Source: Methylococcaceae bacterium
GTDB lineage: Bacteria > Pseudomonadota > Gammaproteobacteria > Methylococcales > Methylomonadaceae
Length of the DNA stretch: 64,000 nucleotides
Direction: 5' to 3'
NCBI GenBank assembly: GCA_049296695.1
Contig: JBAQSX010000061.1
Span: forward strand, 1 to 64,000
Part shown: positions 20,279-62,338 of the stretch, piece by piece
How positions within the stretch are numbered: position 1 is the stretch's first letter
How the letters are laid out: each line of letters opens with the position of its first letter
Program-made: the position numbers and the translations under genes
The notes under the pieces: model-generated
What the model saw: the letters and a program-made list of their open reading frames with translations, nothing else
Told to the model about the DNA's origin: nothing
The model's database searches: none

Positions 20279-20289
20279 TGGTCTGACTC

Positions 20290-22323: not shown

Positions 22324-23597
22324 TAGCCTAATATAACTTGATTTCTACCATTTTTCTTTGCTTGGTATAATAATTTGTCTGCTTTAATTAAAGCAGTTTC
22401 TAAATTTTCTTCGGTTGTAATACAAACGCCAACACTTACAGTGATTTTTAACAAGCTTTCATTGGGTAATCTAATACTATTGTCTGCAATTTTTTTACGC
22501 AATTCTCCAAATACTTTATTAGCATCTTCTGCATTCACGTTAGGTAATAAAAAACCGAATTCTTCACCACCAAAACGGGCGACTAAATCACCAGCTCGCA
22601 GGCTATTACTTAAAAGCTCCCCTATTTTTTTTAATACTAAATCCCCAATATCATGTCCATGCGTATCATTGACTTGTTTAAAGAAATCAATATCAATTAA
22701 TGCCACTGCCACAGGTTTGTGTGAACGTACGGCGCGCGCAAATAGTTTTTCACCCACATCAAAAAAATGCCGTCTATTATATAATCCTGTTAAAAAATCG
22801 CGGGTTGCTACAAAACGTAAATCTCGAATATATTCGAGTAATTCCATATTTTGATTAACGCGACAAAAGAACTCTTCTTCTAAAAAAGGTTTATTAATAA
22901 AATCACTGCCACCAATTTTTAAAAAGCGTGCTGATAATAAATTATTACCATAAGCAGACATACCAATAATGGCGAGCTCTTGTTTGCTGTAAATGTTTCT
23001 AGCTTTTTTAGTGAGTTCAAAACCATCCATCACAGGCATATTAAAATCAGTAATAATTAAACGAATATCTTTATTGCTATTTAATATTTCTAAGGCTTCT
23101 TCGCCATTCTCGGCTTCTAAGACAATAAAACGATAAATCGCTAATAAACGTTTAATATGCAGGCGTGCCGTTCTGGAATCATCGACTACTAAGGCTTTAA
23201 TGAGGGTGTTTCTATTGAGTTGTTTTAAAAGCGAAACAATATATTCAATACTGGCGGGACTTTCTTTTAAAACATAATCGACTATGCCTTTGGCGAGCAT
23301 TCGGTCTCTTAAGTCATCATCAAATTTTCCTGTGAATACAATGGAGGGAATGTTATAACTCAATACATAATCAATAACCTGCCCGTCGGGCGCGTCGGGT
23401 AGATTTAAATCTAATAAGCTGGCGAAAAATTCATATTTTCTTGACTCCAATAACTTTGTTAATTCCGCGTAACTTTCCACAGTGATTACCCTGAAATTGG
23501 GATCTGCTTCTATACTCGCTTTGAGAATACGCGTAAACATCTTGCTGTCTTCGACAACTAAAATATTTTTGGGTGGAGTCTCTATTTGTGCAGTCAT
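22323..23597 (-). CDS. Response-regulator diguanylate cyclase (REC-REC-GGDEF, WspR-like)
   Basis: 424 aa; two receiver domains followed by GGDEF domain with GGEEF active site and RxxD-like I-site context. Confidence 0.9.
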
Positions 23598-34339: not shown

Positions 34340-36589
34340 ATGCTCATGACTGAATTCACTGTAAAAACTGACCACCGCCTCGCGCCGATTGTATTATTTG
34401 CCTTAACCCTATTTACCAGCGCGTCATTGATGTTTGTGTTGCAACCGCTGTTTGGCAAATTATTACTGCCTTTATTAGGCGGCTCACCTGCGGTGTGGAA
34501 TACCTGCATGGTGTTTTATCAGAGCTTATTATTTTTGGGTTATTTATATGCGCACGGATTAGCCACGCGTTGCACAGCAAAACAACAAGTCTTTATTCAT
34601 GCCAGTATTATCGCATTGAGTTTTTTAGTATTACCCGTAGCACTGCCTGATAATAATCCACCACCCACAGAAACTAATCCCACTATTTGGGTATTTACTA
34701 CCTTATTATCCGCCATTGGCTTACCATTTTTTATTCTGTCAACCACCGCACCTTTAATGCAGAAATGGTTTGCCCAATTAAATCATAAACACAGTGATGA
34801 CCCGTATTTTTTATATGTCGCCAGCAATATTGGTAGTTTATTATCACTATTGAGTTATCCATTTTTATTAGAACCCAGTATCGGACTTGCCAGTCAACAA
34901 ACTGATTGGAGTATAGGTTACGCGCTATTATGTTTATTACTCAGCAGTTGCGCTTTAATGCTCTGGTTTAGCGCGAAAAACGCAGATAATACTCATGCCG
35001 ATATTCAAGAAAATCTACCACCATTAAGTATTAAAACACAAATGCGTTGGTTAGCTTTAGCCTTTGTTCCCTCAAGCTTATTATTAGGGCTAACTAATTT
35101 TATTAGCACCGATATAGCCTCAGTACCGTTATTGTGGATTATACCCTTAACGGTGTATTTATTGTCTTTTGTCATCGTATTTTCACATTGGAACGATAAA
35201 AGCCATCCGATTATCTTAAAACTACAACCGCTGTTTTTTGTCCCGTTTTTAATTTGCGCCTTTATTAATCCTGCGGATTTACAATATTGGGCATATTTAT
35301 TACTGCATATCATCGCCTTCTTTTTTGCGGTGATGGTCTGTCATGGGGAATTAGCAAAAGCGCGTCCACATACCGCTTATTTAACCAGATATTATTTAAT
35401 CATGTCGTTTGCAGGGATGCTAGGCGGCATGTTTAATACCTTTGTCGCACCGTTTATTTTTAAAGGTATTTATGAATATCCATTAATGATAGTCGCGGCG
35501 TTATTATTACGCCCTAGTATAACTGCTATTCATTATCGTGATAAAAAATTACTCTGGCAAATAGCCTTACCTGCATTAGTATTAAGCAGTGGCTGGTTAC
35601 TATTTACCGCACCACAAAATCCTGTTGATTATTTTGAAGCCTTTGCGATTGCCTTAATTTGTTTAAGCCTTATCGCTTATTGGACAAGAACTCAATTTAT
35701 TCATTATGCTTTATTTAATGGCGTTATTATTTTATTAGCTTTAGGCTTGCACAGTTTATCCGCTAAAACCTTATATCAAGAGCGCACTTTTTTTGGCGTG
35801 TTAAGTGTGCGGGAAAGCGTATTAATTAATGAACATAATCAACCTGAAACTTATTATGAATTATTTCACGGTACAACCAAACACGGTGCAGAACGTTTAA
35901 CTGCCGAAAATATTACCACGCCGCTGACTTATTACAGCAGACCCGGGCCTATGGGACAATTATTTAACGAATATAATAAACAAAATGATGCGTGGACTAT
36001 TGGCGCGGTGGGTTTAGGCGCGGGGGCTTTGGCGTGTTATGCAAAGCCTTCGCAAAACTGGACTTTTTATGAAATTGACCCTTTAGTGGTTAGCGTGGCA
36101 CAAAATACCCACTACTTTTCTTATTTAAAATTATGCGCCCCTAATGCCACTATGCGTATTGGTGATGCGCGTTTATCTTTAAATCAAGAACCTGAGGCTA
36201 AATTTGATTTATTAATGCTCGATGCTTTTAGTTCTGACGCTGTACCAACACATTTAATTACTCAAGAAGCCTTGCAACTTTATTTTAAAAAATTAAAGCC
36301 TAATGGTATTTTGGCATTTCATATTACTAATCGCCATTTAGCCTTAAAAAAGGTATTATCTATTCATGCTGAGCAGTTACATAAAACCGCTTTTATTGAA
36401 GAATTTAAACCCCAACAAGAATTACCTTTAGTGGTAGCCACTGATTGGGTAGTAATGGCAAATAATGCACAAACACTAGAGCCATTAAAGAATAGTAATT
36501 TAGGCGTGTGGGAAACCATGCCACTGTATTTTGATATAAAACCGTGGACGGATGATTTTACTAATATTGTGGATATTTGGAAAAAGTAA
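34340..36589 (+). CDS. Fused polytopic membrane (MFS-like) / spermidine-synthase-like methyltransferase-fold protein
   Basis: 749 aa; ~12 TM N-terminal half, C-terminal PABS-like domain (GAVGLGAGALACY ... FDLLMLDAFSSD). Confidence 0.8.
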   Translation: MLMTEFTVKTDHRLAPIVLFALTLFTSASLMFVLQPLFGKLLLPLLGGSPAVWNTCMVFYQSLLFLGYLYAHGLATRCTAKQQVFIHASIIALSFLVLPVALPDNNPPPTETNPTIWVFTTLLSAIGLPFFILSTTAPLMQKWFAQLNHKHSDDPYFLYVASNIGSLLSLLSYPFLLEPSIGLASQQTDWSIGYALLCLLLSSCALMLWFSAKNADNTHADIQENLPPLSIKTQMRWLALAFVPSSLLLGLTNFISTDIASVPLLWIIPLTVYLLSFVIVFSHWNDKSHPIILKLQPLFFVPFLICAFINPADLQYWAYLLLHIIAFFFAVMVCHGELAKARPHTAYLTRYYLIMSFAGMLGGMFNTFVAPFIFKGIYEYPLMIVAALLLRPSITAIHYRDKKLLWQIALPALVLSSGWLLFTAPQNPVDYFEAFAIALICLSLIAYWTRTQFIHYALFNGVIILLALGLHSLSAKTLYQERTFFGVLSVRESVLINEHNQPETYYELFHGTTKHGAERLTAENITTPLTYYSRPGPMGQLFNEYNKQNDAWTIGAVGLGAGALACYAKPSQNWTFYEIDPLVVSVAQNTHYFSYLKLCAPNATMRIGDARLSLNQEPEAKFDLLMLDAFSSDAVPTHLITQEALQLYFKKLKPNGILAFHITNRHLALKKVLSIHAEQLHKTAFIEEFKPQQELPLVVATDWVVMANNAQTLEPLKNSNLGVWETMPLYFDIKPWTDDFTNIVDIWKK

Positions 36590-46838: not shown

Positions 46839-47237
46839 TTAACTATTTAATGCTTCAGCATAAGCCATATCAAATGTTGGGATATGACTATCCAACCAAC
46901 CTTTTACTAATTGACCCACTTCTTCAGTGACTTCGGCTTCACCTGCATGGAATTTACTTTGCAAATCAGCGCAAATTCCAACTAATGCCACATGTTCTGC
47001 TTTGTGTCTATCATAACCCGCAAAATTTTTGGCAATCATTTCTTTTTCTTCATGCGCGAAATGATCAACTACATAAGCGATTAAATCATCTAATTGCACG
47101 CCTATTGCTGAACGTTCCGCACCACCTGTTGCTAAATCATACAATGTATTCAACTTATCGAATAAAATTTTATGCTCATCATCAGCAAATGCTACATTAG
47201 TGCCATATTGGCTTGCTGTCCAAGTGATTAGTGCCAT
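46839..47237 (-). CDS. Bacteriohemerythrin
   Basis: 132 aa; W..Y.VG...DDEHK.LF...N.L ... HF..EE ... HK.EH ... D..I iron-ligand pattern of hemerythrin. Confidence 0.9.
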   Translation of the reverse strand: MALITWTASQYGTNVAFADDEHKILFDKLNTLYDLATGGAERSAIGVQLDDLIAYVVDHFAHEEKEMIAKNFAGYDRHKAEHVALVGICADLQSKFHAGEAEVTEEVGQLVKGWLDSHIPTFDMAYAEALNS

Positions 47238-48173
47238 GTCTTACTCCTCATTATTATTGTTTAATTATAACCGCACTAAAATTATGGATTGTATTGACTA
47301 CCAAGTCAATCACCGTTTAGTAAGCAAACGTTCAGCTACACTAATAATCAGCACATGGTTACGAATTCCAGAGATAAAGTAATCTTTAGCTATCTGTATC
47401 TAAACGCTTTACGGCAAGCAAATTATTCAAAGAAAAACCTAAAAAGTCTTATATCCGCTCAGCGTCCGCAAAAACATTGCAAATTCTCAATGCACCTTCC
47501 TAAATATAAGAAGTGTGTTGATTTTAAATATAAATTGATTTTGTCAAGTTGTTTATTTTATAAAAACATAGCTTTTCAAATACTATACGGAATACTTTAT
47601 CTATAACTTACTATGTTTTTTGATACACCCGACTGAAAAATTAGCTTCATCTTTAAGTTAAAAGAATTACTTAACCCTATTAATGCACCGATAGTTGTAC
47701 AAACACGCCTCTTGTCCAGAAATACTGTATAACTACCGTAATGATAATCCATTTTTTAAACTATAACTTTTAAGTGATAAAATCTATCCGACTAAAATTA
47801 AAGATTTTAAGCTTTTATAGGGAACTAAAAATAGCCTAGGACTTTAAAATAACCCTCATGCCCCCATTGTCTAGCACAATTTTAATAAAACCCCATCTCA
47901 TTAAGCCTTACTTAAAGTTGGCAGTGTAGCATTTTATGAGCAATATTTAAGTACGCCATGACTTAACTCATAAAATACGTCATTTTAATTTGTAGTTATT
48001 AGCATTCTACAAATAAAAACTAGAAAAAATGTTGCCTTGCAATGTCTTTGCTAGTATTTTGTTGCACTCTTATTTTTTAATAGTACATTACCGTAAAAGC
48101 AATAATAACTATATAAGACTAAGAGTAATTCGTCTTTACATAAATCATTTTTAATACCATTATAGGAACAATC

Positions 48174-50696
48174 ATGAGTACCGCAAAAGAAGAACGCCTG
48201 ATTTTAGCGTTCAAATTACATTCAAAAGTCAATCCCGACCAAGGTAATTTAAGACCTGTCGCCGAAATTATTGACAATAAACTAATAGAATTAAACCCCA
48301 TTAATTTTTGTCATACCAATAAAATTTTTGTCACCGTTGGCTATCAAAATGTTAATGAAAAATTCAAAGAAGGACAATTATTTAGAATACCCGTCAACGT
48401 TGCCGAATATATTAGTACCAATGTAGACCCCTATGCCGCGTCTAAATATGTCACCCAAGGTATTAAAGCAGAACGTTTAAAACCCAATGAATTAGTTGAA
48501 ATAATAGAAGCTGAATTACCTGATAGTAATCATCGTTATGTTGAAATCGGTTATTATCCTAGCACTGAATATATTTTTATTCGCAACAGTGATAGGGATT
48601 GCTTTGGACCTTTTTCGTGGGAACGCAAAGAAGGTGAATCGGGTTTTTATTTATCACTACTCAATGATACCCCCTTATTACGCGCTTACAATATTAGTTT
48701 AGGACAAATATTTAAAATCGATAATGACAGTTTTGAAAACTATGTGTTTGATTGTCAAACCGTGGATAGATATTATCAATTAGTATTAAACATCCATGAT
48801 TTTTTAGAAAACGCCCAGTATTATGAATATGCCTCTGATGAAGAAATTGTACGTTATTGCGCTAAATTAGCAGGCGAAATGGGAACAATGGTTTTTTCTA
48901 AAACCAGTTGGGATGGTTTTAGAAAACTCGCGGTTAATAACGCGCCCTTTGATCAAGGTTTAGGTCGAGAGCGTTTAGCGCGATTATCCAATCTCGCTTC
49001 TGATATTTTTGTAATACAAGAAGATATTCGTGACAATATTGAACGCTTTTTAAGAAGCAATAATGGCGAGCATTTAATTCAAGATTTTATTGAACGCAAA
49101 CGTCCGCAATTATTAGATGAACTGCGCCGCAGTGTCTTAAAAGAAAAAGACAAAGATTTAGAAGAAAAAGAAGATAAGGTTTATCAAATTGAACAGCGTC
49201 TTAAAGATAAAGACAAAGAATTAAAAGAACTCAGTGCCGAAGTTGAACGCAAACGCAAAGAAGCCAATCAAGAGGTTATTTTAGAACATGCCGTGGCGGG
49301 GCGTAATGAAACCGTACAACAATTAGAACAATTAATTGCTGATAAAGAAAAACAATTAACTGATATTAATGAACGCCTCAATTTAGTCTCAGAACTTGTC
49401 GATATTCATCAGAAAATCGAAGAAGGCAAAGTGATTTACAAGCATTATGAAAAAGAAAATGCCTTAATTGTCGAAACCACTAAAAAATTAAAATTAGAGC
49501 GCGATAAAACCGAAGATGAATTACGCACTAAGTTAATTGAATTAAAACCTTTTGTGGAATATATCAACGGTTCATACTTTAGTAATAACAGCGAAAAAAC
49601 AAAATCGGTTTTTGTTGAAATTAATAACCAAAATTACAACGATGTCTTAGAACAACAACGTTTAGTAGTTGAATCAGTTAAACATAATCTACGTTTAAAT
49701 GGGCGTTATTTTGAATCATGGCAAGTAGCGAATTTATTAATCTCCACCCAACAATCCTTTATTACCTTTTTAGCAGGATTACCCGGCGTTGGTAAAACCT
49801 CATTAGCGCGATTATTAACCCAATCACAAGGTTTAAAACCCCGTTTGCAAGAAGTATCAGTAGCGCGGGGTTGGACTTCACAAAAAGATTTAATTGGTTT
49901 TTATAATCCATTAGCGAATCGTTTTCAATCCGCCAATACAGGTTTATATAGTTTTATTGAAGCTTTAAGTGCTGAGAAAAAAGATGAACAGGCAATGGCT
50001 TATGTATTATTAGACGAGGCGAATTTAAGTCCAATTGAACATTATTGGTCAGCCTTTATGGCAATGGCAGACGGCGAAGGGGCAAGAGAATTACGCTTAG
50101 GACAAGATACTTTAACCGTGCCTTCAGTATTACGCTTTTTAGCCACCATTAATTATGACGGTACTACTGAGCCATTAAGTCCACGAGTAGTAGACCGCGC
50201 CCCAGTTATTATTATGGAAAGCTCTGGGGCATTATCAGATGATAATGAAGTTATTAATCAACAATTAATTAACTTGCCCTTATCAGCGGGTGAAATGACT
50301 AAATTATTTGGTTTGGCAAAACAAATACCTGCTTTTCAAAATGATGAGGCGGTTATCTTTAATAAATTACGGCAAATACTCGCTGACCCTAATTTAGAAA
50401 AAGGTCGTCCTTTGAGTATTAGCCAACGTAAAGAAATTGTGATTCGGCAATATTGCGCTCAAGCCAGTTCATTAATGCGCTCCTTTGGTTGTGATGATTT
50501 TAAAGCCTTAGATTTAGCGATTTTGCAACATGTATTACCTCAAGTGCGCGGCACAGGGCATAAATTCGCTAGCCGTTTAGTTGAATTAAAACAAAGTTGT
50601 GATAATGAAGGTTTAAAAGAATCGGCGGCTTATTTAGAAAGAATGCTCGCTTATGGTGAAACAGAATTACATTCTTATGATTTCTTTTGCTGGTAA
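48174..50696 (+). CDS. McrB-like AAA+ (AAA_5) GTPase subunit with ~500-aa N-terminal extension containing a long coiled coil (CoCoNuT CnuB-like)
   Basis: 840 aa; Walker A GLPGVGKTSLARLL (~aa 530), Walker B VLLDEANLSPIEHYW, sensor/Arg-finger region ATINYDGTTEPLSPRVVDRAPVI analogous to McrB TMNTADRS...RRRF; residues ~300-450 K/E-rich heptad coiled coil. Confidence 0.75.
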   Translation: MSTAKEERLILAFKLHSKVNPDQGNLRPVAEIIDNKLIELNPINFCHTNKIFVTVGYQNVNEKFKEGQLFRIPVNVAEYISTNVDPYAASKYVTQGIKAERLKPNELVEIIEAELPDSNHRYVEIGYYPSTEYIFIRNSDRDCFGPFSWERKEGESGFYLSLLNDTPLLRAYNISLGQIFKIDNDSFENYVFDCQTVDRYYQLVLNIHDFLENAQYYEYASDEEIVRYCAKLAGEMGTMVFSKTSWDGFRKLAVNNAPFDQGLGRERLARLSNLASDIFVIQEDIRDNIERFLRSNNGEHLIQDFIERKRPQLLDELRRSVLKEKDKDLEEKEDKVYQIEQRLKDKDKELKELSAEVERKRKEANQEVILEHAVAGRNETVQQLEQLIADKEKQLTDINERLNLVSELVDIHQKIEEGKVIYKHYEKENALIVETTKKLKLERDKTEDELRTKLIELKPFVEYINGSYFSNNSEKTKSVFVEINNQNYNDVLEQQRLVVESVKHNLRLNGRYFESWQVANLLISTQQSFITFLAGLPGVGKTSLARLLTQSQGLKPRLQEVSVARGWTSQKDLIGFYNPLANRFQSANTGLYSFIEALSAEKKDEQAMAYVLLDEANLSPIEHYWSAFMAMADGEGARELRLGQDTLTVPSVLRFLATINYDGTTEPLSPRVVDRAPVIIMESSGALSDDNEVINQQLINLPLSAGEMTKLFGLAKQIPAFQNDEAVIFNKLRQILADPNLEKGRPLSISQRKEIVIRQYCAQASSLMRSFGCDDFKALDLAILQHVLPQVRGTGHKFASRLVELKQSCDNEGLKESAAYLERMLAYGETELHSYDFFCW

Positions 50697-50702
50697 AAAC
50701 CC

Positions 50703-52409
50703 ATGAAAATAACCCTATTCATGGGCAATGAAACACGAGTTTTTAATAATCAGCATGAAATCTATAGTATTCATGCCGATGAAACCGTGTATTTTGAATT
50801 AAGCTTCGCATCGCCCAGTGATGATAGTCCTAGTTTATTTATTGAAGACCATGAATTAGTATTAACGGCTTATCATAAGGATAATGAAACTAAAGTATTT
50901 CGTTCTGAACCTAGCTGTATTTTTCATGAATTTTTTGGTTTAGTGATAGCGCGGCTTTATATTAATGAGCAGTGTATTGAATGTCGTTTTGATGTCAGTA
51001 TTAAAAAAAGCCAAGCGGTTCAAGTTGAACAAATGATTGGCTATTTAACGCAACAACAAGATGAAATTATGCGGATATGTTTAGCCACCACGCCTGTGAA
51101 TAATGCCGCGAATACTGACCCTGAAAAATTATTAACCACCGCTGAAACTTTTGTTAATACTTTAATGGCTTGTCGTTTAGAATTACAAAGCCATTTACGC
51201 AAACGTTTAATTCCTGTCAAACAAGCCGCGTGGAAATCTGAGCAACAAAGTGATATTGACCCCTTTGATATTATTTTTAATTTAGACGCATTAGAACCCG
51301 TATTAGGCGGCGGTGATGTCATTGTTAATGGGCGTAGTTTTACCATTAAAGATACCGAAATTACCAGCTTAACCGAAACCGCTAATGTCAGTGAAAATAC
51401 CATTTTATTAGGCGGCATTTATTCAATGCGGCGATTAATTAATCATTTATTACTAGCATTAAATCAAGCCGTTGCTAGCAATAAAAAAGAATTAGTTGTT
51501 GAAATAGAATATGAATCCTTAGCACAAGTTTTATTACGCGTCACTGCCTTTAAAATAAAACACCGCTCAGAGCAGTTATTATTAAGACTAGAAGAATTTA
51601 TCCGTTATTTTGAACATACTTTAAAAATTAATTATAACGGTGAACAACGTCCAATCATGACTCCTTTTGTGCGGGCTTCGCGGGTTTATCGGCGGTTATT
51701 TGAACAATTACACGACTGGTATTTATGCAATGAAGCCTCGCTGGAAAGTCGTAATTATTTAGCTAAATTACGCTCAGTTACCAAGCTTTATGAATTGGTG
51801 AGTTTATTTAAACTTATTGATTATTTGAATGCTAAAAATTGGCAAGTCACGCACACGCAATGGCTTTCTGAAACAGAATTTGTGCCGTCATTATTAGTAT
51901 TTGAGCGTGAGGATTTAAAATTAACCCTGCATTATGAAGCTAAAATATTTGCTTATGATGAAAATACTCGGCATTTAGATTTAGTCGATGTTAAGCATTC
52001 ACGTTTTAGTCATGACTATAATTATTGGTGTCCTGATTTTATTGTGCGTTTAGAGAATACTAAGAAAACCGCTTATTTTATTTTAGATGCTAAATATAGC
52101 TCAGCCGAAAGTATTAAACATCAGTATTTGCCGAGTTTATTAGAAAAGTATTTTATGAATATGGCAGTTTATGATGCTAATCGACAAGTATTAAGCCAAG
52201 AGCTTATTATGGGCATTATTGCTTTATTTCCAGATAAGGAATTGGCAAGCCCTGTATATATGTATAACTCGGCTAAATATGGGATTTATAAACAACCGTT
52301 AAAATTACCGATTATTACAGGTTTTCCGCTTACTTCGGTGTCGGATAAAATCACTTATCCATTATTAGATAGGTTATTTGAGATTATTGAAGGGCAATTA
52401 CATTTTTAA
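50703..52409 (+). CDS. McrC-like PD-(D/E)xK nuclease subunit with N-terminal extension
   Basis: 568 aa; starts 7 nt after the upstream McrB-like stop; C-terminal D...CPDFIV...ILDAKY motif equivalent to McrC PD...(D/E)xK. Confidence 0.7.
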   Translation: MKITLFMGNETRVFNNQHEIYSIHADETVYFELSFASPSDDSPSLFIEDHELVLTAYHKDNETKVFRSEPSCIFHEFFGLVIARLYINEQCIECRFDVSIKKSQAVQVEQMIGYLTQQQDEIMRICLATTPVNNAANTDPEKLLTTAETFVNTLMACRLELQSHLRKRLIPVKQAAWKSEQQSDIDPFDIIFNLDALEPVLGGGDVIVNGRSFTIKDTEITSLTETANVSENTILLGGIYSMRRLINHLLLALNQAVASNKKELVVEIEYESLAQVLLRVTAFKIKHRSEQLLLRLEEFIRYFEHTLKINYNGEQRPIMTPFVRASRVYRRLFEQLHDWYLCNEASLESRNYLAKLRSVTKLYELVSLFKLIDYLNAKNWQVTHTQWLSETEFVPSLLVFEREDLKLTLHYEAKIFAYDENTRHLDLVDVKHSRFSHDYNYWCPDFIVRLENTKKTAYFILDAKYSSAESIKHQYLPSLLEKYFMNMAVYDANRQVLSQELIMGIIALFPDKELASPVYMYNSAKYGIYKQPLKLPIITGFPLTSVSDKITYPLLDRLFEIIEGQLHF

Positions 52410-52411
52410 TT

Positions 52412-52440
52412 AATTGGGTTGTCAAATTGGCAACCCAATA
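52412..52440. terminator. Hairpin between convergent McrC-like and greA genes
   Basis: attgggttg tcaaattgg caacccaat. Confidence 0.4.
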
Positions 52441-52457
52441 TAATAGCTAAGTGCGTT

Positions 52458-52934
52458 TTAAATATATTGTACTGAAATAATTTCGTATTCAATATTACCG
52501 CTGGGGGCTTTTACGGTGACGACATCTTCAATTTCTTTACCAATTAAAGCACGAGCAATAGGTGAACCCACTGAAATACGTCCTGATTTAATATCCGCCT
52601 CATCTTCACCGACGATTTGATAAGTCACTGTTTCGCCGCTGTCGAGATTTTCTATTTCAACTGTCGCGCCAAATACTACTTTTCCATTTGCATCGACTTT
52701 GGTGACATCGATTATTTGCGCGTTGGATAATTTGCTTTCAATTTCATTAATGCGTCCTTCGGCAAAACTTTGTTGTTCTTTTGCCGCGTGATATTCAGCA
52801 TTTTCTTTTAAATCGCCGTGTTCTCTGGCAGTCGCTATTGCATTAACAATGCGTGGACGGACAACGTGTTTTAATTCATCTAATTCAGCGCGTAATTTTT
52901 CCGCGCCTTTTACGGTTAATGGAACTTTGACCAT
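52458..52934 (-). CDS. greA: Transcription elongation factor GreA
   Basis: 158 aa; canonical GreA N-terminal coiled coil and C-terminal FKBP-like domain. Confidence 0.95.
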
Positions 52935-52960
52935 TGTTTTATAACTCCAAGTATTGTTAT

Positions 52961-54964
52961 TTATTCTGTAATAACTGTTTTAACTAATAAATTTTTTGCC
53001 AAGTAATCTGAAGCAATAGGGGTTAGATGTCCATAATCCCAACTGGTTATTCCTGTTTTCTTATCATCACCAATTCTTGTTAAACAACCTTTTTCATTGC
53101 AAAAAAGGGCAATTAAATCGATAAAAATTGATTTTTTTGTATTGCTAAATTGGGTTTTAAGATTTTCATTTTCAAGCATTATTTTTTGATCAATGCCTAT
53201 TAGTGTTCTTTCGGGGGTATTATGCCAGATTTTACGCATAATTATTTTAGGTAAATCATCTACCCAATGAGGTGATGGTCCTGTAAATATTATTCTTTTT
53301 ATACCACTTGCTAATAAAAAATCGTTTAATTTATTTAACTCATCAAATTTATGTCCATGCGCTTGGGCAATAATGACTACATTAGGTTTTATTTCCTTTA
53401 TGGTTTCTAAAGCAAATTGATTAGACTTTTGACAATAGTCTTTTGTTATATCACCTTGAATATTAGAATTAGCAGGACAACTAGAACTCGCTACTATTAA
53501 AATTTGCCAATCTTTAGGTAAATTATTATTCAACCCAAAGTATAATTGTTGAGCATGTGAATCCCCCCATATAAACACAATATTTCTCTTTTTTAAATCG
53601 GGATTGGGTGTGTAGCAGCTTTTATCTATTTGCGCTAAAGGTATTCTGGTCACATTGCCAAGACGATACTTTTCAATATCATAAAAATTGCAATCCCCGC
53701 GACATTTTGCAAACATTTCTGTTGTTTTAGAGTAATTCCATTCAGGTTTACTATTTTCAAAGTAATTAGCAAAATCGCTTTTTTCTTGGCTTCTATAGCC
53801 ATATCCTTGCAAACCACCATTTAAATATAAACTATATCCACCAAAACCAACTACTATCATTAAACCCAGTAATAATAAAACTATTTTTTTACTTTTAATT
53901 TTTAAACGAATCGGTCTTTCAATAAATTGATAAGTGAGCCAAGCGAGTAAAATTGAAATTAAAACAATAGTAATACGCAACTCGCGTGGTATTTCGCTTT
54001 CTAAAATTCTCGCAAAGGACAATAACGGCCAATGCCATAAATACAATGGAAAACTAATTAAGCCAAACCATACTAATAACTTATTTGATAAAATTACACG
54101 ATTCAACCACGTTTGCGTACCAGCTGAAATAATTAATGCTGTACCCAAGGTGGGTAATATTGCCCACCAACCAGGAAAATATTTATCTTTAGTAATCAGA
54201 AAAATCCCAGTTGCGATAAATAATACCCCTAAGATAGACTGTAGCGAATTAAAGTGGTTTTTAATATTGGGTAATAAAGTGGGCTTATAAAGCATTAGAT
54301 ACGCTAACATTGAACCTGTTAATAATTCCCAAAAACGCGTTTGTGGCGAATAAAAATCTGCTACAGCGTCCTCGCGTATTTCACTAATGTTGAGCGCGAA
54401 GGAAATAATAAATGCACTAATGGTAATTATTAAAAAATTAAATCTAATCTTCCAAGCAAGCCATAACAACAATGGCCAAATAATATAATACTGTTCTTCA
54501 ATACCTAAAGACCAAAGATGTAATAGTGGTTTGGTTTCAGCGGCATTATCAAAATAACCGCTCTCTTGCCAAAATAAAAAATTTGAAATAAAGCCGGCTC
54601 CACCAGCAACATGTTTTCCTAGTTGTGTATATTCATCAGCAAGTAATGTAAACCAACCTGCAGTAATACAAGCAATTAATACTAATAATAATGAAGGAAA
54701 TATACGTTTAATACGACGGCTATAAAATTCAATGAAACTAAAATTATTGCTTGTTAAATTGTTAAAAATAATGGTAGATATTAAAAATCCCGAAATAACA
54801 AAGAAAATATCAACGCCAATAAAACCGCCTTTAATCCAGTTTGGAAAAGCATGAAACCCTACAACGGATAAAACTGCAATTGCGCGTAAACCGTCAATAT
54901 CTGCACGATATTTAGGATGTGATAGTTCTTTAGAATTAATAGTCATAGTCATAGTCATAGTCAT
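52961..54964 (-). CDS. Acyltransferase family 3 (OafA/OatA-like) membrane O-acyltransferase fused to C-terminal SGNH hydrolase domain
   Basis: 667 aa; N-terminal 10-11 TM AT3 domain ([15 protein letters not shown]), C-terminal SGNH block I GDSHA and block V DYGH; N-terminus MTMTMTMT encoded by (ATGACT)4. Confidence 0.85.
54941..54964. repeat. Hexanucleotide tandem repeat (agtcat)x4 = four in-frame ATG-ACT units at the 5' end of the acyltransferase gene
   Basis: agtcatagtcatagtcatagtcat on + strand. Confidence 0.9.
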
Positions 54965-55032
54965 TAATATTATGGAGATATAAATCTAACAGGTTTTAAA
55001 AGCCTGTTAGATTTTTTTAAAAAAGCAATTAC

Positions 55033-58000
55033 TTACTTCAATCCCTTATGCAAATCCTGCAAACAATTCACATCACCCGCATCTAATTCACCCAAAGCAT
55101 AACAAGCCGCTCTTGCCCCCGCCATTGTGGTGTAATAAGGTACACGATGTTGCAACGCTTCACGGCGCATGGTAAATGAATCCGAAATCGCTTTTGTGCC
55201 TTCGGTAGTATTAATGATTAATTGAATCTGGTCATTTTTAATCATATCCACTGTATTAGGACGACCTTCATTGACTTTATAAACTTCTTCGCAAGGAATA
55301 CCCGCTGATTTTAAATAACGCGCCGTGCCACCTGTTGCCACAATTTCATAATTCTTTGCCACTAACATTTGCGCCACTTCGGGTAATTTTATTTTATCCG
55401 CGTCACGAATACTAATTAATACTTTACCGCTAGTATTCAAATTAATTCCAGCAGCGCGTTGTGATTTAGCAAAAGCTTCACCAAAAGTTTTACCCACACC
55501 CATAACCTCACCAGTGGATTTCATTTCAGGGCCTAATAAAGAATCTACTCCGGGGAATTTCACAAAGGGGAACACCGCTTCTTTGACGGAAAAATAATCA
55601 GGAATCACTTCTTCAGTAATGCCTTGCTGGGTTAAGGTTTGCCCAACCATCACGCGAGCCGCAATTTTAGCGAGTGCGTAACCTGTGGCTTTAGAGACAA
55701 ACGGCGCGGTGCGTGAGGCTCTGGGATTGACTTCTAACACATAAATCTCATCACCTTGAATGGCAAATTGCGTATTCATCAAACCGCGAACGCCCAAAGC
55801 CTCTGCCATTTTGCCGACTTGTTCGCGCAAACGGTCTTGTAATTCGGGTTTTAAATCATAAGGCGGCAACGAACACGCCGAATCGCCCGAATGCACACCC
55901 GCTTGCTCGATGTGTTCCATCAAACCACCGATTAATACCCGTTCACCGTCATAAATCGCGTCTACGTCCATTTCCACCGCATCATCTAAGAAACGGTCAA
56001 GCAGCACAGGCGAATCATTCGACACGCTCACCGCTTCTTTCATGTAACGTTGCAAACCTTCTTCATTCACCACAATTTCCATTGCCCGACCGCCCAACAC
56101 ATAAGACGGACGCACTACTAAGGGATAACCCAAGTCACGCGCCGCATTAATGGCTTGCTCAACCGAACGCGCTGTAGCGTTAGGGGGTTGTTTTAATTGC
56201 AAACGTTCTAATAATTTTTGGAAACGTTCGCGGTCTTCTGCTAAGTCGATTGAATCAGGTGATGTGCCGATAATGGGAACGCCAGCCGCTTCTAAAGCGC
56301 GAGCCAATTTTAACGGCGTTTGTCCACCGTATTGAACAATTACACCTTTAGGTTTTTCTTTATAAACGATTTCTAAAACGTCTTCTAAAGTTAATGATTC
56401 AAAATATAATCTATCCGAAGTATCAAAATCGGTTGATACTGTTTCAGGATTACAATTAATCATAATGGTTTCATAACCATCTTCGCGCAACGCTAATGCC
56501 GCATGAACACAGCAATAATCAAATTCAATACCTTGTCCAATGCGATTAGGGCCGCCGCCTAAAATAATAATTTTTTCTTTGTCAGATACTCGCGCTTCAC
56601 ATTCCTCTTCATAAGTTGAATATAAATAAGCAGTATCAGAAGCAAATTCAGCCGCGCACGAATCTATACGTTTATATACAGGACGTATATTATTTTTATG
56701 GCGAATATTTCGCACTTCTATTTCAGAGGCATCTAATAATTGCGCTAAGCGTAAATCAGAAAAACCTTTGCGTTTTAATTGATACAATTCACCCGCTTTT
56801 AAAGTCGATAAGGTTTTTGTTTTTAAGGATTGCTCAATTAAAACTAAGTCTTCTAATTGCGCTAAAAACCACGGGTCTATTTTACATAAACCATGTATTT
56901 CTTCTAAAGATAAACCTTTACGAAACGCATCGGCAACATAACGCAATCTATCAGGGCCAGGGTGTCTTAATTCACGTTTAATTCTATCGTAAGCATCATT
57001 AGCATGAATATCAATAATTTCATTCAATCCACAAATACCAATTTCTAAACCGCGTAATGCCTTTTGCAATGATTCTTGGAAGGTGCGCCCAATTGCCATT
57101 ACCTCGCCCACGGATTTCATTTGCGTGGTTAATCTATCATCGGCTTGCGGGAATTTTTCAAAAGTAAAACGTGGTACTTTTACTACGACATAATCAATTG
57201 CAGGTTCAAATGAGGCTGGGGTTTTACCGCCTGTTATTTCATTTTTTAATTCGTCTAAGGTATAACCAACAGCGAGTTTTGCCGCGACTTTAGCAATAGG
57301 AAAACCCGTAGCTTTTGAAGCCAAAGCCGAAGAGCGTGATACTCTAGGATTCATTTCAATAATAATCATGCGACCATCAACAGGATTAATCGCCACCTGT
57401 ACATTTGAACCGCCAGTATCTACGCCTATTTCTCTTAATATCGCTAAAGAAACATTACGCAGGATTTGATATTCTTTATCAGTTAGTGTTTGCGCGGGCG
57501 CGACAGTTATTGAATCCCCAGTATGTACACCCATTGGGTCAAAGTTTTCAATTGAACAAACAATAATACAATTGTCTTTTGAATCTCGCACCACTTCCAT
57601 TTCATATTCTTTCCAACCCAATACCGATTCTTCAATTAATAATTCATTAGTGGGTGATAAATATAAACCGCGTTCGCAAATCTCCATAAATTCTTGCTTA
57701 TTATAAGCAATACCACCGCCACTACCGCCCATTGTAAATGAAGGTCTAATAACTGTGGGATAACCGACTTCTTTTTGCGCGAGCAACGCTTCTTCCATTG
57801 AATGCGCGGTTTTTGATTTAGCCACTTCATAACCAATTCGCGCCATTGCGTCATTAAATAATTGACGGTCTTCGGCTTTATTAATTGCCTCTTTAGTCGC
57901 GCCTATCATTTCAACATTATATTTAGCCAATACCCCGTGTTTATCTAAAGCCAAGGCGCAATTTAATGCGGTTTGTCCGCCCATTGTCGGTAATATCGCA

Positions 58001-58251
58001 TCGGGGCGTTCTTTGGCAATAATCTTTTCTACGGTTTGCCAATCAATTGGCTCAATATAAATCGCGTCCGCCATGTCGGGGTCGGTCATAATAGTGGCGG
58101 GATTAGAATTAACGAGGATGACTCGATAACCTTCTTCGCGTAGGGCTTTACAGGCTTGTGTGCCTGAATAATCAAATTCACACGCTTGCCCGATAACAAT
58201 AGGGCCTGCACCTAATAATAAAATGGATTTTATGTCTGTTCTTTTTGGCAT
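55033..58251 (-). CDS. carB: Carbamoyl-phosphate synthase large subunit
   Basis: 1072 aa; duplicated ATP-grasp domains, canonical CarB. Confidence 0.97.
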
Positions 58252-59395: not shown

Positions 59396-60322
59396 TTAGT
59401 TAATAAGTATAGAATTCAAATATTCTATTAAACAATCAGGAGTCTCAGCATAACCTGAAAAAAGTTCTATTGCTTGCTCATTGCTTAATTTAGAACTAAA
59501 AGAAAACTTTATTTTCTCTTTGAAATATTTTTTTTGATTATTTGAGTCTTGCAAAATCAAGTCAATTATAGTAACTACAAACCACATTTCATATTTTCCT
59601 CTAAATATTTTTCGACATTCACAATTAGAGAACTCAATAATTTTTTTATTTAAATTATCTTGTGAAACTTCAAGTGCAGTAGGGAAGTTTTGCTGTATTG
59701 TTTCAAGTGTATAATTTTTAGAGATAGATTCTAAAGTAAACGTTATAAAGTTTCTTGTTTCTCTATCACCGCCTAATTTATCGCTCAAATTAACACCTGT
59801 TTCTTTTTTTTCTATATTTTTAATATCAATTAGACTAGCATACCAAGCATTAAATAAAAATATCGCTTGATGAAATTCATTCTGTCTTTGAGTATAAAGA
59901 TTTAAACACATTTGATAAGCTTCACTAACTTCTGATAATCCTAAAGAGTTTTTTATAATTTCTCTGAAAACATTTACAGATGTATAAAAATTTTCAATCG
60001 AATAATAAGGAGTTTCAAAAATATCTGGATTTATTAAAGGTTTATCAAAGTCTCTATCTATAAAAAAAGCTTTTTTATACTTTTTATATTCTGTATGAAT
60101 TGATATTAAACGGTAAACAGTTAATACTTTATCTTTACCACCACATTTTATTGGATAGTAGTTTTCTGTAAACCGCTTTATCCTTGGAGAATAATAAGGA
60201 CTATCTTTTCCCTCAAAAAAACAAAATAAACCTGTTTTATTTTGATTTATATGAAGCATAAATTCTTGATAAGCAACTTGAGGTTTATCTCGACCTTTTC
60301 TCAGTTCTTCTAAATAAGTCAT
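59396..60322 (-). CDS. DUF4435/TOPRIM-like protein (PARIS AriB-like)
   Basis: 308 aa; conserved Glu (FCFFEGKD) and DxD (FFIDRDFD) consistent with divergent TOPRIM; directly downstream of an ABC-type ATPase. Confidence 0.55.
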   Translation of the reverse strand: MTYLEELRKGRDKPQVAYQEFMLHINQNKTGLFCFFEGKDSPYYSPRIKRFTENYYPIKCGGKDKVLTVYRLISIHTEYKKYKKAFFIDRDFDKPLINPDIFETPYYSIENFYTSVNVFREIIKNSLGLSEVSEAYQMCLNLYTQRQNEFHQAIFLFNAWYASLIDIKNIEKKETGVNLSDKLGGDRETRNFITFTLESISKNYTLETIQQNFPTALEVSQDNLNKKIIEFSNCECRKIFRGKYEMWFVVTIIDLILQDSNNQKKYFKEKIKFSFSSKLSNEQAIELFSGYAETPDCLIEYLNSILIN

Positions 60323-60324
60323 TA

Positions 60325-61683
60325 TTAAACAATAATATTTTTTGATAATGTAATATATTGATCTAAACCAATAGCATATTCATCCAATTCGTTTTCAAAA
60401 ATAAAAGGAGAGTGTGTAACTGCTAACAAAAAGTCGCATTTTTTAGATTTAAGCACATCTGGAAGTAATTGTTTTTGCCATATCATGCTTAAAGATAACT
60501 CTGGCTCATCAAATAAGACTATGAACCGTTCTTCTTTAGAAAGATAAACTTTAGAAAACATTGAAACTATTTGTTTTTCACCTGATGAAAGATACTTCAA
60601 TAAGATTTCGTCATTCGTCAAGCTTGATTTAATAAAAATTTTTATTGCGCTTTCATCATAAAATACTTTCTTCCCTATTAAATAATTATTACAAACATCC
60701 TTAAATGTTTTTATTGAATTATCAAGTTCTTTTTGTTTTTCATAAATTTCGATTAATTTCTTCAAAAAATATAATGAATAAGGATTCGTTATTTTTTTAT
60801 TCATAACGATATTTCTTATATTATCTTTATCTGCTTTAGGGAGTTGATTACCGACTCTTGCCAATATAATATCAATACCATTCTCATCAATTTTATCTAA
60901 ACAACTATTGTCATTTCCTTCAAAGCCATTAACTAACTGGCTCATAAATTCTGATGTAATTTTTGAAAAGCCTTCTTTCAATAATTGGTCAATTTCATGT
61001 TCAATGCTTCTAAATCTTTTAGACACATCATCCATGCCAAAATGAATAACAGTATCTTCTTCATCCAATAAGTTATCTTCATCGTAACCAAGATTATGTA
61101 AATCTTCTTCTACACGTCTAAAAGTTGGAAAATAAAGCACCTTTAAATCTTTAATTTCAGATCTAATTTTTTTTCTACAAGTATCTAAAACTTTACCTAA
61201 ACTTCCTTCTTTATTAAGCATTTCGAGTTCCTCAAGTACCCGAAAAACATGGTGCGTAGGATATTTTCTTATTTTTGAACCTAAGAGCTTTTCATCCAGT
61301 CGCCGCCAATCACCTTTGCTCTTAATAAACTCATTTCTAAGTAATTCAAAGCGAGAAAATCCAATATCATTTATCAGCTCTTCTAAAATGGGGTGTTTGT
61401 ATAGCCTTTTAATCAATTCGTCTATATTATTTTTGTGTATTTCAATAGAATTTCCTTTTGAAAAAGTCAATTGAACTCTATTAAAGTTAAATTCACTTAA
61501 TCGGGGGAAATTTTGAGTTAATATATAATAAAAAATATTCAGAACTTGTGTTTTTCCAAGTCCATTTTCACCAATCAAAATTTTAATATTTTCGTTAAAA
61601 AGAATATGTACATCATGTGTACCAAAAAGACCATACACTGAAAAAGATTTAATTGGACTTAGAGTATTCATGTTTATTCTCAA
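60325..61683 (-). CDS. ABC/OLD-family AAA ATPase (AAA_15/AAA_21-like; PARIS AriA-like)
   Basis: 452 aa; N-terminal IKSFSVYGLFG...IKILIGENGLGKTQVLN (Walker A), C-terminal Walker B/H-loop IVLFDEPELSL...LLAVTHSP. Confidence 0.65.
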   Translation of the reverse strand: MRINMNTLSPIKSFSVYGLFGTHDVHILFNENIKILIGENGLGKTQVLNIFYYILTQNFPRLSEFNFNRVQLTFSKGNSIEIHKNNIDELIKRLYKHPILEELINDIGFSRFELLRNEFIKSKGDWRRLDEKLLGSKIRKYPTHHVFRVLEELEMLNKEGSLGKVLDTCRKKIRSEIKDLKVLYFPTFRRVEEDLHNLGYDEDNLLDEEDTVIHFGMDDVSKRFRSIEHEIDQLLKEGFSKITSEFMSQLVNGFEGNDNSCLDKIDENGIDIILARVGNQLPKADKDNIRNIVMNKKITNPYSLYFLKKLIEIYEKQKELDNSIKTFKDVCNNYLIGKKVFYDESAIKIFIKSSLTNDEILLKYLSSGEKQIVSMFSKVYLSKEERFIVLFDEPELSLSMIWQKQLLPDVLKSKKCDFLLAVTHSPFIFENELDEYAIGLDQYITLSKNIIV

Positions 61684-61750: not shown

Positions 61751-62338
61751 TCAAAACCTAACATCTTCATAAATATCACCCAACTTCAAAACCGTTTGAT
61801 AATTCTCACAACGAATCAACAATTCTTCATTGTCTTCTAATAAAGCCGTTTGCCATTCATTATGGTTATCACGCACATAATACTCACAACGTTTTTTATT
61901 AGCATCAATGAGTAAATAATAACGCAAACTAGGCAGACTTAAATAAGCCAGTAACTTTTCTCTACGGTCTATTTTTGCGGTGCTATTGGATAATACTTCG
62001 GTAATTAAACAAGGTTTTTCTTTATAGTATTCTTGGTTGTCTTCAGTATCACAAACTAATAACACATCAGGATAATAATAAGCATTATGCTGGGCGATTT
62101 TGAGTTTCATATCACTCATAAACACGCCGCATTGCCCACCCCGCGCAGATGAGCGTAATTGAAAAAAGATATTACCTGCAATGCGATTATGCCGCTCACT
62201 CGAGCCTGCCATTGCATAAATATAACCGTCTTTATATTCATGCCGAATGGTAGCGGTTAATTCAAAATCTAAATAATCTTGCTCGGTTAAATAAGGGATT
62301 TTTTGCAAGGCGGTCATAGTATTAACCTCATTTAGCAA
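61751..62338 (-). CDS. Uma2-family (DUF820) PD-(D/E)xK endonuclease
   Basis: 195 aa (possibly starting at M8); Y.DG.IYAMAGSSERHNRI...PDV Uma2 signature. Confidence 0.75.
   Translation of the reverse strand: MLNEVNTMTALQKIPYLTEQDYLDFELTATIRHEYKDGYIYAMAGSSERHNRIAGNIFFQLRSSARGGQCGVFMSDMKLKIAQHNAYYYPDVLLVCDTEDNQEYYKEKPCLITEVLSNSTAKIDRREKLLAYLSLPSLRYYLLIDANKKRCEYYVRDNHNEWQTALLEDNEELLIRCENYQTVLKLGDIYEDVRF

Follow-up and report, generated by a model that had tools for sequence, protein, structure and literature searches.

A pair of adjacent genes on the + strand of a Methylococcaceae MAG probably forms a self-contained defence module of the McrBC type (Type IV-restriction-like) that belongs to the Type I CoCoNuTs, with the Type I-C layout as the best fit. 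The window analysed comprises 64,000 nucleotides, within which the first gene (48174-50696) encodes an 840-aa protein (GenBank MFZ2725627.1) and the second (50703-52409) a 568-aa protein (GenBank MFZ2725628.1), both labelled 'hypothetical protein'. The pair is a new and fairly ordinary member of the catalogued Type I CoCoNuT class. The first-pass annotation had stressed that neither protein is a plain McrB or McrC; the architecture is not unusual, as at least 130 representatives of 50%-identity clusters have it from end to end and it agrees with the layout already published for Type I-C. Both ORFs were found at the coordinates and lengths given in that annotation and every motif quoted from the two proteins is present, while the spacer between the genes, claimed as 7 nt, counts 6 nt (TAA AAACCC ATG). 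The features of the module are:

47238..48173, + strand: AT-rich, gene-free upstream spacer
48174..50696, + strand: CnuB-like gene encoding a coiled-coil McrB-family (NxD-type) GTPase (hhalign to CnuB; PADLOC PDC-M26A)
48174..48938, + strand: N-terminal module, aa 1-255, two beta-rich subdomains
48960..49571, + strand: coiled-coil hairpin, aa 263-466 (AF2 helices, composition, heptads)
49641..50273, + strand: McrB-like GTPase core, aa 490-700 (aligned to E. coli McrB and Type I-A CnuB)
50274..50693, + strand: helical, lid-like region at the C-terminus, aa 701-840 (R752, D780 and P789 do not vary)
50703..52409, + strand: CnuC-like gene encoding the 568-aa McrC-like nuclease subunit
50703..51005, + strand: N-terminal all-beta domain, aa 1-101 (AF2: ten strands, zero helices, pLDDT ~80-88)
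51006..51827, + strand: middle region, aa 102-375, in which AF2 predicts long helices at 230-265 and 273-306 and a small beta unit at 168-226
51828..52406, + strand: PD-(D/E)xK nuclease domain, aa 376-568 (catalytic-residue conservation, McrC alignment)
52414..52438, no strand assigned: hairpin TTGGGTTG-N9-CAACCCAA, read from the sequence, between the stop codons of the nuclease gene and greA, which converge here

Locus, distribution and mobility

Judging by conservation, both ORFs are real genes and not chance ORFs, because many bacteria carry full-length homologues of both proteins (30-75% identity), in every case encoded side by side. The close family was detected in 13 of 185,579 species (GTDB), and in each of these 13 loci, as in every metagenome locus examined, full-length homologues of the GTPase and nuclease genes lie next to each other in unchanged order. 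No conserved third gene was detected beside the pair in the homologous loci examined, and a CnuA-like gene is absent.

The neighbouring genes vary from genome to genome, including RNR genes, AraC/leucine catabolism genes, and UDG with ParE/YafQ toxins. The pair is also carried by A. baumannii plasmid pA52-1, where Vsr and an MvaI/BcnI R-M system are its neighbours, and by Klebsiella IncF plasmids, where integrases and IS elements enclose it. In syntenic MAGs the pair stands at 72% and 59%, as against 88% and 92% for the flanking GreA and CarB. These observations support a mobile rather than a core status of the pair, and universal conservation as a core gene is contradicted by its presence in so few species and on plasmids.

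Regarding base composition, the GC content is 0.353 for the 840-aa gene and 0.340 for the 568-aa gene, the median for genes in the window being 0.376 (sd 0.050), and other genes in the window are much lower (0.26-0.27). The 'low-GC pocket' of the first-pass annotation was thus not recovered, only the upstream spacer being AT-rich, and the argument for acquisition drawn from it fails because the GC content of both genes is within 1 sd of the median; the suggestion of horizontal acquisition itself is upheld as mobility, on the grounds of patchy occurrence, plasmid carriage and changing neighbours.

The flanking genes are those named previously, hemerythrin, COX2/COX1 and GreA, followed by an AT3-SGNH acyltransferase and CarB. 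The upstream spacer, described as 930 bp of AT-rich, gene-free sequence, measures 936 bp with a GC content of 0.296 and presumably contains the promoter of the pair. It contains no tRNA and no Rfam match reaching the gathering score, its promoter-like sites show no excess over the shuffled expectation, and none of its small ORFs is conserved; the gap between the neighbouring gene and the GTPase gene is ~100 nt in homologous loci. An AGGA ribosome-binding site lies 8-11 nt ahead of the ATG of the 840-aa gene. At the other end, the hairpin at 52414..52438 likely terminates transcription in both directions and delimits the module on its 3' side; it was missed by the terminator scan because its loop exceeds 8 nt. 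A PARIS system is present in the same window, 7 kb from the pair.

The GTPase subunit

The core of the 840-aa protein contains Walker A (G535-T542, GLPGVGKT at aa 535), the McrB-type motif W567-TSQKDLIGFYNP, Walker B (L612-S619, LLDEANLS at aa 612), and the block ATINYDGTT...VVDRAP (aa 657-677), which includes the NxD motif N660-Y-D662 and R671/R675. K541, D614, E615, N660, D662, R671 and R675 are conserved in 100% of full-length relatives (n=131). McrB of E. coli K-12, from the prototypical Type IV restriction enzyme EcoKMcrBC, shares Walker A, Walker B and the sensor Asn with this protein, and there too the nuclease subunit is encoded adjacently downstream of an AAA+ GTPase. A five-way alignment shows one residue fewer here than in the NxxD of E. 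coli McrB (N333-T-A-D336). This shortened 'NxD' signature defines the CoCoNuT branch of McrB GTPases (Bell et al., 2024; PMC11090510).

Profile comparisons point the same way. By hhalign, the family profile matched Type I-A CnuB with 99% probability (E = 4.6e-18, aa 496-796), E. coli McrB with 86% (E = 4.6e-6) and the MoxR protein RavA with 8.9%; BLASTP against CnuB gave E = 6e-18 and the PADLOC model PDC-M26A matched the 840-aa protein with E = 3.2e-25. A published Type I-A pair, that of E. coli S43 (WP_040216748.1 / WP_073528071.1), reaches 1132 bits with PDC-M26A and 1404 bits with PDC-M26B, which identifies the two as the models of Type I-A CnuB and CnuC and PADLOC candidate PDC-M26 as Type I-A. 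The proposal of a CoCoNuT-like coiled-coil GTPase is therefore borne out by signature and profiles. The protein had also been called an unmistakable McrB-type NTPase; membership of the McrB family holds on hhalign and NxD, but 'unmistakable' is too strong, as Pfam AAA_5 reaches 14.9 bits against a cutoff of 22 (a threshold passed by family member P0029) and fold searches with a low-confidence model of the GTPase ranked MoxR and MCM above McrB. Neither protein of the pair scored above threshold in Pfam or NCBIfam, the 568-aa protein drawing no match at all, and phmmer against E. coli McrB was marginal (E = 0.16).

Ahead of the core, AF2 helices at 263-294, 296-361, 376-443 and 447-466, interrupted at 361-376, form an E/K/R/D-rich hairpin (16% E, 11% K, 13% L), in which heptad-like periodicity is seen at 265-297, 318-368 and 377-415. 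The existence of a coiled coil was thus confirmed, but its length had been underestimated at ~150 aa (~300-450), AF2 predicting an antiparallel hairpin of ~200 aa. The N-terminal module has OB-like topology (b1-b2-b3-a-b4-b5) at ~aa 5-95 and a mixed a/b part at ~aa 105-235, and is presumed to be the nucleic-acid sensor. A profile of 30 sequences of this domain matched no Pfam family, no PDB sequence and not the CSD-containing N-terminus of Type I-A CnuB, and no YTH- or EVE-like signal was obtained. E. coli McrB, by contrast, has a small 5mC-specific DNA-binding N-domain and no coiled coil. At the C-terminal end of the 840-aa protein, a YDFFCW tail is conserved among close relatives.

The nuclease subunit

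The 568-aa protein has an McrC-like fold (AF2, pLDDT 82.8) and a C-terminal PD-(D/E)xK domain, in agreement with the nuclease partner proposed earlier. The candidate catalytic residues are E412, D445 (nt 52035-52037) and D462-A-K464 (nt 52086-52094), located in the motifs CPDFIV (aa 443) and ILDAKY (aa 460); across 45 homologues P444, D445, D462, A463 and K464 never vary, while E412 is conserved in at least 90%. D445, D462 and K464 align with the catalytic D244, D257 and K259 of E. coli McrC. Against the nuclease domain of Type I-A CnuC hhalign gave 78% (E = 1.9e-5), and Pfam PDDEXK_7, which Type I-A CnuC matches above threshold, had sub-threshold matches in 17 of 45 family members.

The protein exceeds E. 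coli McrC, which has 348 aa and lacks an Ig-like domain, by 220 aa, in line with the ~200 aa estimated previously. Its N-terminal all-beta domain, homologous to the equivalent region of the partners on the Acinetobacter and Klebsiella plasmids, is a candidate immunoglobulin-like beta-sandwich according to the model, and the middle region is, by its position, a candidate counterpart of the McrC N-terminal (DUF2357) domain. No match to Pfam DUF2357 was found in the middle region, nor any hhalign match of the N-terminal and middle regions to E. coli McrC or Type I-A CnuC, and PDC-M26B did not match the 568-aa protein.

Subtype, proposed mechanism and alternatives

Type I-C is described as CnuB of CSD-YTH-CoCo-McrB and CnuC of IG-McrC_N-PD-DxK (Bell et al., eLife 2024; PMC11090510), and the tentative assignment of the pair is drawn from its fit to this layout description. 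Like Type I-C, the family occurs mainly in Pseudomonadota, and the locus has two genes only (CnuB and CnuC), an NxD-type GTPase in which Walker B and NxD are not separated by a helical insert, a long coiled coil between a ~250-aa N-terminal beta-rich module and the GTPase, and a partner with an N-terminal all-beta domain and an active-looking C-terminal PD-(D/E)xK domain; unlike Type I-C, no RhoGDI-like match was seen for the Ig-like domain. With Type I-A it has in common the two-gene operon, an N-terminal coiled coil, related nuclease domains and a homologous GTPase domain, including NxD, 'WTS..DL.G.YNP', 'DE.NL...E.Y' and 'IN.D.TT..LSP...DRA', but Type I-A has an ~85-aa helical insert between Walker B and NxD that is missing here, N-terminal domains without sequence relation, and a CnuC of 860 aa that additionally contains OB/CSD and C-terminal parts.

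Drawing on McrBC of E. coli and of Thermococcus and on Bell et al. (2024; PMC11090510), we infer the hexamer, the complex, its GTP dependence, the N-domain ligand, the DNA target and the defence phenotype as follows. The CnuB-like protein would form a hexameric ring via its NxD-type McrB GTPase domain, with antiparallel coiled-coil stalks keeping the N-terminal OB-like/beta-rich modules clear of the ring, where they may sense a feature of invading nucleic acid, for example a base modification, a single-stranded stretch or a stretch of RNA. The CnuC-like protein would then dock on the ring, boost GTP hydrolysis and cleave via its intact PD-(D/E)xK site (D445, D462, K464). The most likely substrate is DNA, because the catalytic triad is invariant and DNase-type. 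In the literature, an experimental phenotype is available for a Type II CoCoNuT locus only and for none of Type I.

It is conceivable, if doubtful, that the same assembly targets RNA, as Bell et al. (PMC11090510) predicted for CoCoNuTs, the N-terminal OB/CSD-like (possibly YTH-like) module binding phage or host RNA (modified tRNA, tmRNA, rRNA) with RNA cleavage or abortive infection as the outcome. The sole nuclease is, however, a PD-(D/E)xK enzyme with a fully conserved D...D-x-K, a chemistry typical for DNA; no HEPN domain or other RNase is present in the module or its conserved neighbourhood, the N-domain showed no similarity to YTH or EVE in the searches, and OB folds also bind ssDNA.

Compared with the preferred Type I-C-like DNA-targeting module, a distinct, unclassified subtype of the NxD branch, with a CoCoNuT-like chassis and a ~255-aa novel recognition fold outside Types I-A, I-B and I-C, appears unlikely. 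It would accord with the unmatched N-domain profile, with the lack of sequence relation between the partner's N-terminal and middle regions and Type I-A CnuC, and with the fact that PADLOC 2.0 would not call the pair because the nuclease protein has no match. The missing Type I-A insert, the lack of a CnuA-like gene and the partner's N-terminal all-beta domain speak for Type I-C. That the pair serves a housekeeping function outside defence, as a MoxR-like AAA+ ATPase that works with an accessory protein in chaperoning or remodelling, is highly improbable. Sequence-profile support for MoxR-family ATPases (RavA, CHU_0153) is absent, the McrB-type motifs W/Y-S-x-x-D-hh-G-Y-x-P, DExN and NxD are in place, and instead of a VWA protein the partner is a nuclease of McrC-like fold. 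This reading is largely refuted by profiles, motifs, nuclease partner and mobile distribution, with the narrow occurrence of the close family, its varied neighbourhoods and its plasmid carriage, and in the syntenic MAGs the pair diverges far more than GreA and CarB.

Sequence and predicted structure of the two subunits

The genes encoding a candidate coiled-coil nuclease tandem (CoCoNuT), a McrB-like GTPase (CnuB) and a McrC-like nuclease (CnuC), were located exactly where the first-pass annotation had placed them, separated by a spacer of 6 nt. The features of the pair are as follows:

48174-50696, + strand: gene A, 840-aa GTPase subunit (open reading frame and homologues)
50676-50693, within gene A: conserved tail YDFFCW (aa 835-840), invariant in the close family
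50703-52409, + strand: gene B, 568-aa nuclease subunit (open reading frame and homologues)
52414-52438, between the convergent stops of B and greA: perfect 8-bp hairpin, TTGGGTTG-N9-CAACCCAA

The products are identical to MFZ2725627.1 (A) and MFZ2725628.1 (B) of a Methylococcaceae MAG, both labelled 'hypothetical protein' in GenBank, and the motifs quoted earlier were all recovered, namely GLPGVGKT (aa 535), LLDEANLS (aa 612) and ATINYDGTT...VVDRAP (aa 657-677) in A, and CPDFIV (aa 443) and ILDAKY (aa 460) in B. Both are real genes, since full-length homologues at 30-75% identity are present in many bacteria and the two are always kept together.

Regarding the NTPase region of A, the Walker A (GxxGxGK[ST]; G535-LPGVGKT-542) and Walker B (hhhDE.N; L612-LDEANLS-619) motifs are invariant among 131 relatives, and the signature motif after the beta-strand following Walker B is the NxD variant N660-Y-D662. 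In a five-way alignment one residue is deleted relative to N333-T-A-D336 of McrB; NxD is common to A, its plasmid relatives and the Type I-A CnuB, whereas McrB differs. The same alignment places the McrB-family motif W567-TSQKDLIGFYNP of A against YSYEDFIQGYRPN of McrB, and DEANLS of Walker B against DEINRA of McrB. Residues N660, D662, K541, D614/E615, R671, R675 and R752 are 100% conserved in the 131 full-length relatives of A. The YDFFCW tail may be a docking element; an aromatic ..FF.. C-terminal tail was seen again in more distant relatives of A.

Comparison by hhalign with a 24-sequence profile of the A family gave 99% probability (E = 4.6e-18) for Type I-A CnuB over the whole NTPase region (aa 496-796) and 86% (E = 4.6e-6) for E. 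coli McrB, versus 8.9% (E = 3.7e-3) for E. coli RavA of the MoxR group, in agreement with the McrB rather than MoxR affinity proposed previously. A MoxR AAA+ identity was rejected on the RavA score and on the nature of the partner B, a PD-(D/E)xK nuclease and not a VWA-domain protein. BLASTP of A against the Type I-A CnuB of E. coli S43 gave 6e-18, and the PADLOC model PDC-M26A matched aa 377-630 (E = 3.2e-25). Among PDB sequences, McrB was found by phmmer with A at E = 0.16, while hmmsearch of the family profile ranked Lon top, an artefact caused by the coiled coil plus P-loop. The Pfam AAA_5 (PF07728) score of A is 14.9 bits, below the cutoff of 22, and relatives of A score 25.8 (P0029, above the cutoff), 21.9 and 20.6 bits. 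The NCBIfam scan of A gave no match; across Pfam, NCBIfam and PHROGs, A had sub-threshold generic AAA matches only and B had none.

The AlphaFold2 (AF2) model of A (mean pLDDT 71.6) has four parts: a well-modelled N-terminal module (aa 5-235, pLDDT about 77-91) of two beta-rich subdomains, an antiparallel coiled-coil hairpin of helices 263-294, 296-361, 376-443 and 447-466, an NTPase core predicted with low confidence (pLDDT 36-70) and a helical C-terminal region. Composition and heptad periodicity of A agree with the hairpin; the long coiled coil claimed earlier is thus predicted, with an extent of aa 263-466 and not ~300-450. The N-terminal module, or N-domain (~255 aa), was described by the first-pass annotation as unlike known families and is indeed a sequence orphan: no match was found in Pfam with 12 members, among PDB sequences with a 30-sequence profile, or by hhalign with the cold-shock domain (CSD)-containing N-terminus of Type I-A CnuB. 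In fold searches with the full-length model, AAA+ matches dominate and swamp the N-domain.

Pfam, PADLOC, NCBIfam and PDB-sequence searches gave no match for B. In an alignment of 45 B homologues, P444-D445 and D462-A463-K464 are invariant and E412 nearly so, and the catalytic D...D-x-K aligns to D244/D257/K259 of McrC. The AF2 model of B is of good quality (pLDDT 82.8); it begins with an all-beta domain (aa 1-101), continues through a helical middle region that holds a small beta unit and ends in an alpha/beta domain, and its overall predicted fold resembles solved McrC. The hhalign match of B to the nuclease domain of Type I-A CnuC reached 78% (E = 1.9e-5), and the Pfam family PDDEXK_7 has sub-threshold matches in 17 of the 45 family members and scores above threshold in Type I-A CnuC. 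The invariant PD...D-x-K and the McrC-like predicted fold bear out the earlier identification of B as a McrC-style nuclease.

Classification and proposed function

CoCoNuTs were defined in 2024 by computation only, and the one-residue deletion producing NxD defines the McrB branch that contains them (Bell et al., eLife 2024, PMC11090510). On sequence and predicted structure, the pair is assigned by the published definitions to Type I, because of its NxD GTPase, fused coiled coil and content of CnuB plus CnuC only. The CoCoNuT reading of the first-pass annotation was therefore upheld in substance by NxD, coiled coil and CnuB homology, and the locus is a member of this recently described kind rather than a new kind, leaving current understanding unchallenged.

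The E. coli S43 pair is listed as a Type I-A CnuB/CnuC, a type in which a helical insert separates Walker B from NxD (PMC11090510). The two S43 proteins score 1132 and 1404 bits over their full length on PDC-M26A and PDC-M26B, which identifies PADLOC PDC-M26 as the Type I-A CoCoNuT; no literature on PDC-M26 was found. In the alignment the S43 CnuB carries an insert of ~85 aa, whereas A and its Acinetobacter and Klebsiella homologues do not have it. Type I-B has a separate CnuA (PYD/CARD-CoCo-REC) and a CnuB without coiled coil (PMC11090510); in contrast, neither the window nor the homologous loci have a CnuA-like neighbour, and the coiled coil here is part of the GTPase protein A. Type I-C consists of CnuB and CnuC only, with a CSD-like OB fold and a YTH-like (EVE superfamily) domain ahead of the CnuB coiled coil and a CnuC that begins with an immunoglobulin-like beta-sandwich (PMC11090510). 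The pair likewise has two genes and no third conserved gene, A has a ~250-aa beta-rich module at the position of CSD plus YTH, and the all-beta domain that opens B corresponds in position to the Ig-like domain of Type I-C CnuC. Judged by published layout, the pair best fits Type I-C within Type I, given the lack of the I-A insert and of CnuA, the beta-rich module in the model of A and the all-beta start of B. By cluster membership, accessions of the A/B family do not overlap with the Type I-C examples named in PMC11090510.

By analogy with McrBC, the GTPase subunits would form a hexamer on which B would dock, stimulating GTP hydrolysis; the N-terminal modules, on coiled-coil stalks, would recognise a nucleic-acid feature and the PD-(D/E)xK site of B would cleave. 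Judging from the sequences, a DNA substrate is favoured, given an intact, invariant PD-(D/E)xK site and the lack of any RNase. The live rival is that the pair targets RNA, as predicted for CoCoNuTs by Bell et al. (PMC11090510). The only experimental CoCoNuT datum is that a Type II locus protects against RNA phages and a DNA phage.

Regarding the N-domain, an orphan in sequence, an alternative to the Type I-C layout is that it is a new nucleic-acid-sensing fold and not CSD plus YTH; the family would then form a CoCoNuT subtype outside the present classification, specific for a target of its own and equipped with an active DNA nuclease. We consider this improbable; if true, the unclassified subtype would be widespread, including the Klebsiella and Acinetobacter plasmid copies. 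The pair provides a clean, minimal two-gene CoCoNuT example from a methanotroph MAG.

Distribution and neighbourhoods of homologous pairs

Close relatives of B were detected in 13 of 185,579 species (one genome per GTDB species), comprising Methylococcales MAGs, Burkholderiaceae, Magnetococcales, Rheinheimera and Ferribacterium. A full-length A homologue lies directly upstream of the B homologue in every GTDB locus found, and the two genes adjoin each other in each of the 20+ loci examined. Neighbouring genes include UDG, ParE and YafQ toxins and uvrC on another Methylococcales contig, ribonucleotide reductase genes in Chromobacterium violaceum, and AraC and leucine-catabolism genes on a further contig; no third gene is kept with the pair across the compared loci. 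Three Methylococcales MAGs (loci L006-L008) have the pair at the same greA-carB junction as the window (48174-58251) with an unrelated left flank; identity to the window is 72% for A and 59% for B, versus 88% for GreA and 92% for CarB. Defence genes that evolve fast typically show such greater divergence at a synteny break.

An exhaustive HMMER search with the A-family profile retrieved 850 cluster representatives at E <= 1e-30; nearly all of the best 150 matches are 800-870 aa long and aligned from ~residue 5 to the end, and the N-domain is alignable in 130 of these 150 (median identity 20%), so the architecture is common and not exotic. A phage origin was rejected, the phage collection yielding one weak partial match.

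Regarding plasmids, tblastn detected a full-length pair at 38% identity on A. baumannii pA52-1, and, flanked by integrases and IS elements, a ~30%-identical full-length pair on many IncF plasmids of Klebsiella; all three regions of B are homologous in the Acinetobacter and Klebsiella copies (hhalign). The closest plasmid pair, on pA52-1 (NZ_CP034093.1, 5947-14138), adjoins an MvaI/BcnI-family restriction endonuclease, a DNA cytosine methyltransferase and a Vsr endonuclease, and pair, MvaI/BcnI restriction-modification system and Vsr together are a small defence island. Besides K. pneumoniae NZ_CP107354.1, about 165 further Klebsiella plasmid records contain the ~30%-identical pair, which is frequent among IncF plasmids of Klebsiella, Citrobacter and Enterobacter. 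Many records show the ATPase gene as two separate matches or list its product with a length of 628 aa, and ISKpn26 interrupts one copy, so that many of the copies may be degraded.

The A/B family, a larger sister of PDC-M26/Type I-A, is missed altogether by the models now in Pfam, NCBIfam and PADLOC, and its genes carry the label 'hypothetical protein' or 'AAA family ATPase'. Close architectural relatives are carried by many clinical plasmids of Klebsiella, Citrobacter, Enterobacter and Acinetobacter, with possible effects on phage therapy and on plasmid traffic, and they offer convenient material for testing a Type I CoCoNuT by experiment for the first time.

Surroundings of the pair in the window

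The flanking genes reported earlier (hemerythrin, COX2/COX1 and GreA) were all found, together with an AT3-SGNH acyltransferase and CarB. The 'low-GC pocket' of the first-pass annotation was not borne out, GC being 0.353 and 0.340 for the pair where genes of the window have a median of 0.376 (sd 0.05) and go down to 0.26; AT-richness is confined to the 936-bp upstream spacer (GC 0.296). The compositional argument for horizontal transfer was rejected, as the GC of the pair is unremarkable within the window. In the spacer no tRNA and no Rfam family at gathering score were detected, repeats were not significant and no promoter signal rose above chance, and a search for island boundaries around the pair (flanking direct repeats, tRNA genes, integrase remnants, promoters and ncRNAs) gave nothing beyond chance. 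The hairpin at 52414-52438 is probably a bidirectional terminator; with a loop of 9 nt it escaped the terminator scan. Other genes in the window are:

4081-4848, - strand: 255-aa ORF, GC 0.27, without any match
20290-22323, - strand: methyl-accepting chemotaxis protein with C-terminal hemerythrin domain
34340-36589, + strand: 749-aa ORF, no Pfam match, weak PADLOC mad2 match (1.6e-8)
46839-47237, - strand: stand-alone hemerythrin, just upstream of the pair region
52961-54964, - strand: AT3 acyltransferase-SGNH fusion between greA and carB, GC 0.315
59396-60322, - strand: PARIS AriB-like DUF4435/Toprim protein (PADLOC AriB, 1.1e-44)
60325-61683, - strand: PARIS AriA-like ABC ATPase (Pfam AAA_15/AAA_21; PADLOC AriA, 6.5e-30)
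61751-62338, - strand: 195-aa protein adjoining the PARIS pair (PADLOC PDC-S03 candidate, 3e-27)

The PARIS-type pair (59396-61683, - strand) sits between carB and carA, 7 kb downstream of the A-B pair, and at GC 0.26-0.27 its genes are the most compositionally anomalous of the window; with PARIS this close, the region resembles a defence-island neighbourhood. A homologue of the 195-aa PDC-S03-like protein is present near carB in two of the syntenic MAG loci (L007 and L008). The AT3-SGNH fusion belongs to a family of carbohydrate O-acyltransferases; its low GC (0.315) and its absence from the greA-carB position in L006-L008 suggest that the hotspot of the pair also holds a variable gene for cell-surface modification. 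The hemerythrin genes may serve oxygen- or iron-sensing signalling typical of methanotrophs, and the chemotaxis-hemerythrin gene adjoins genes for a CheA-like kinase and a REC-REC-GGDEF protein (cluster 17198-23597, - strand).
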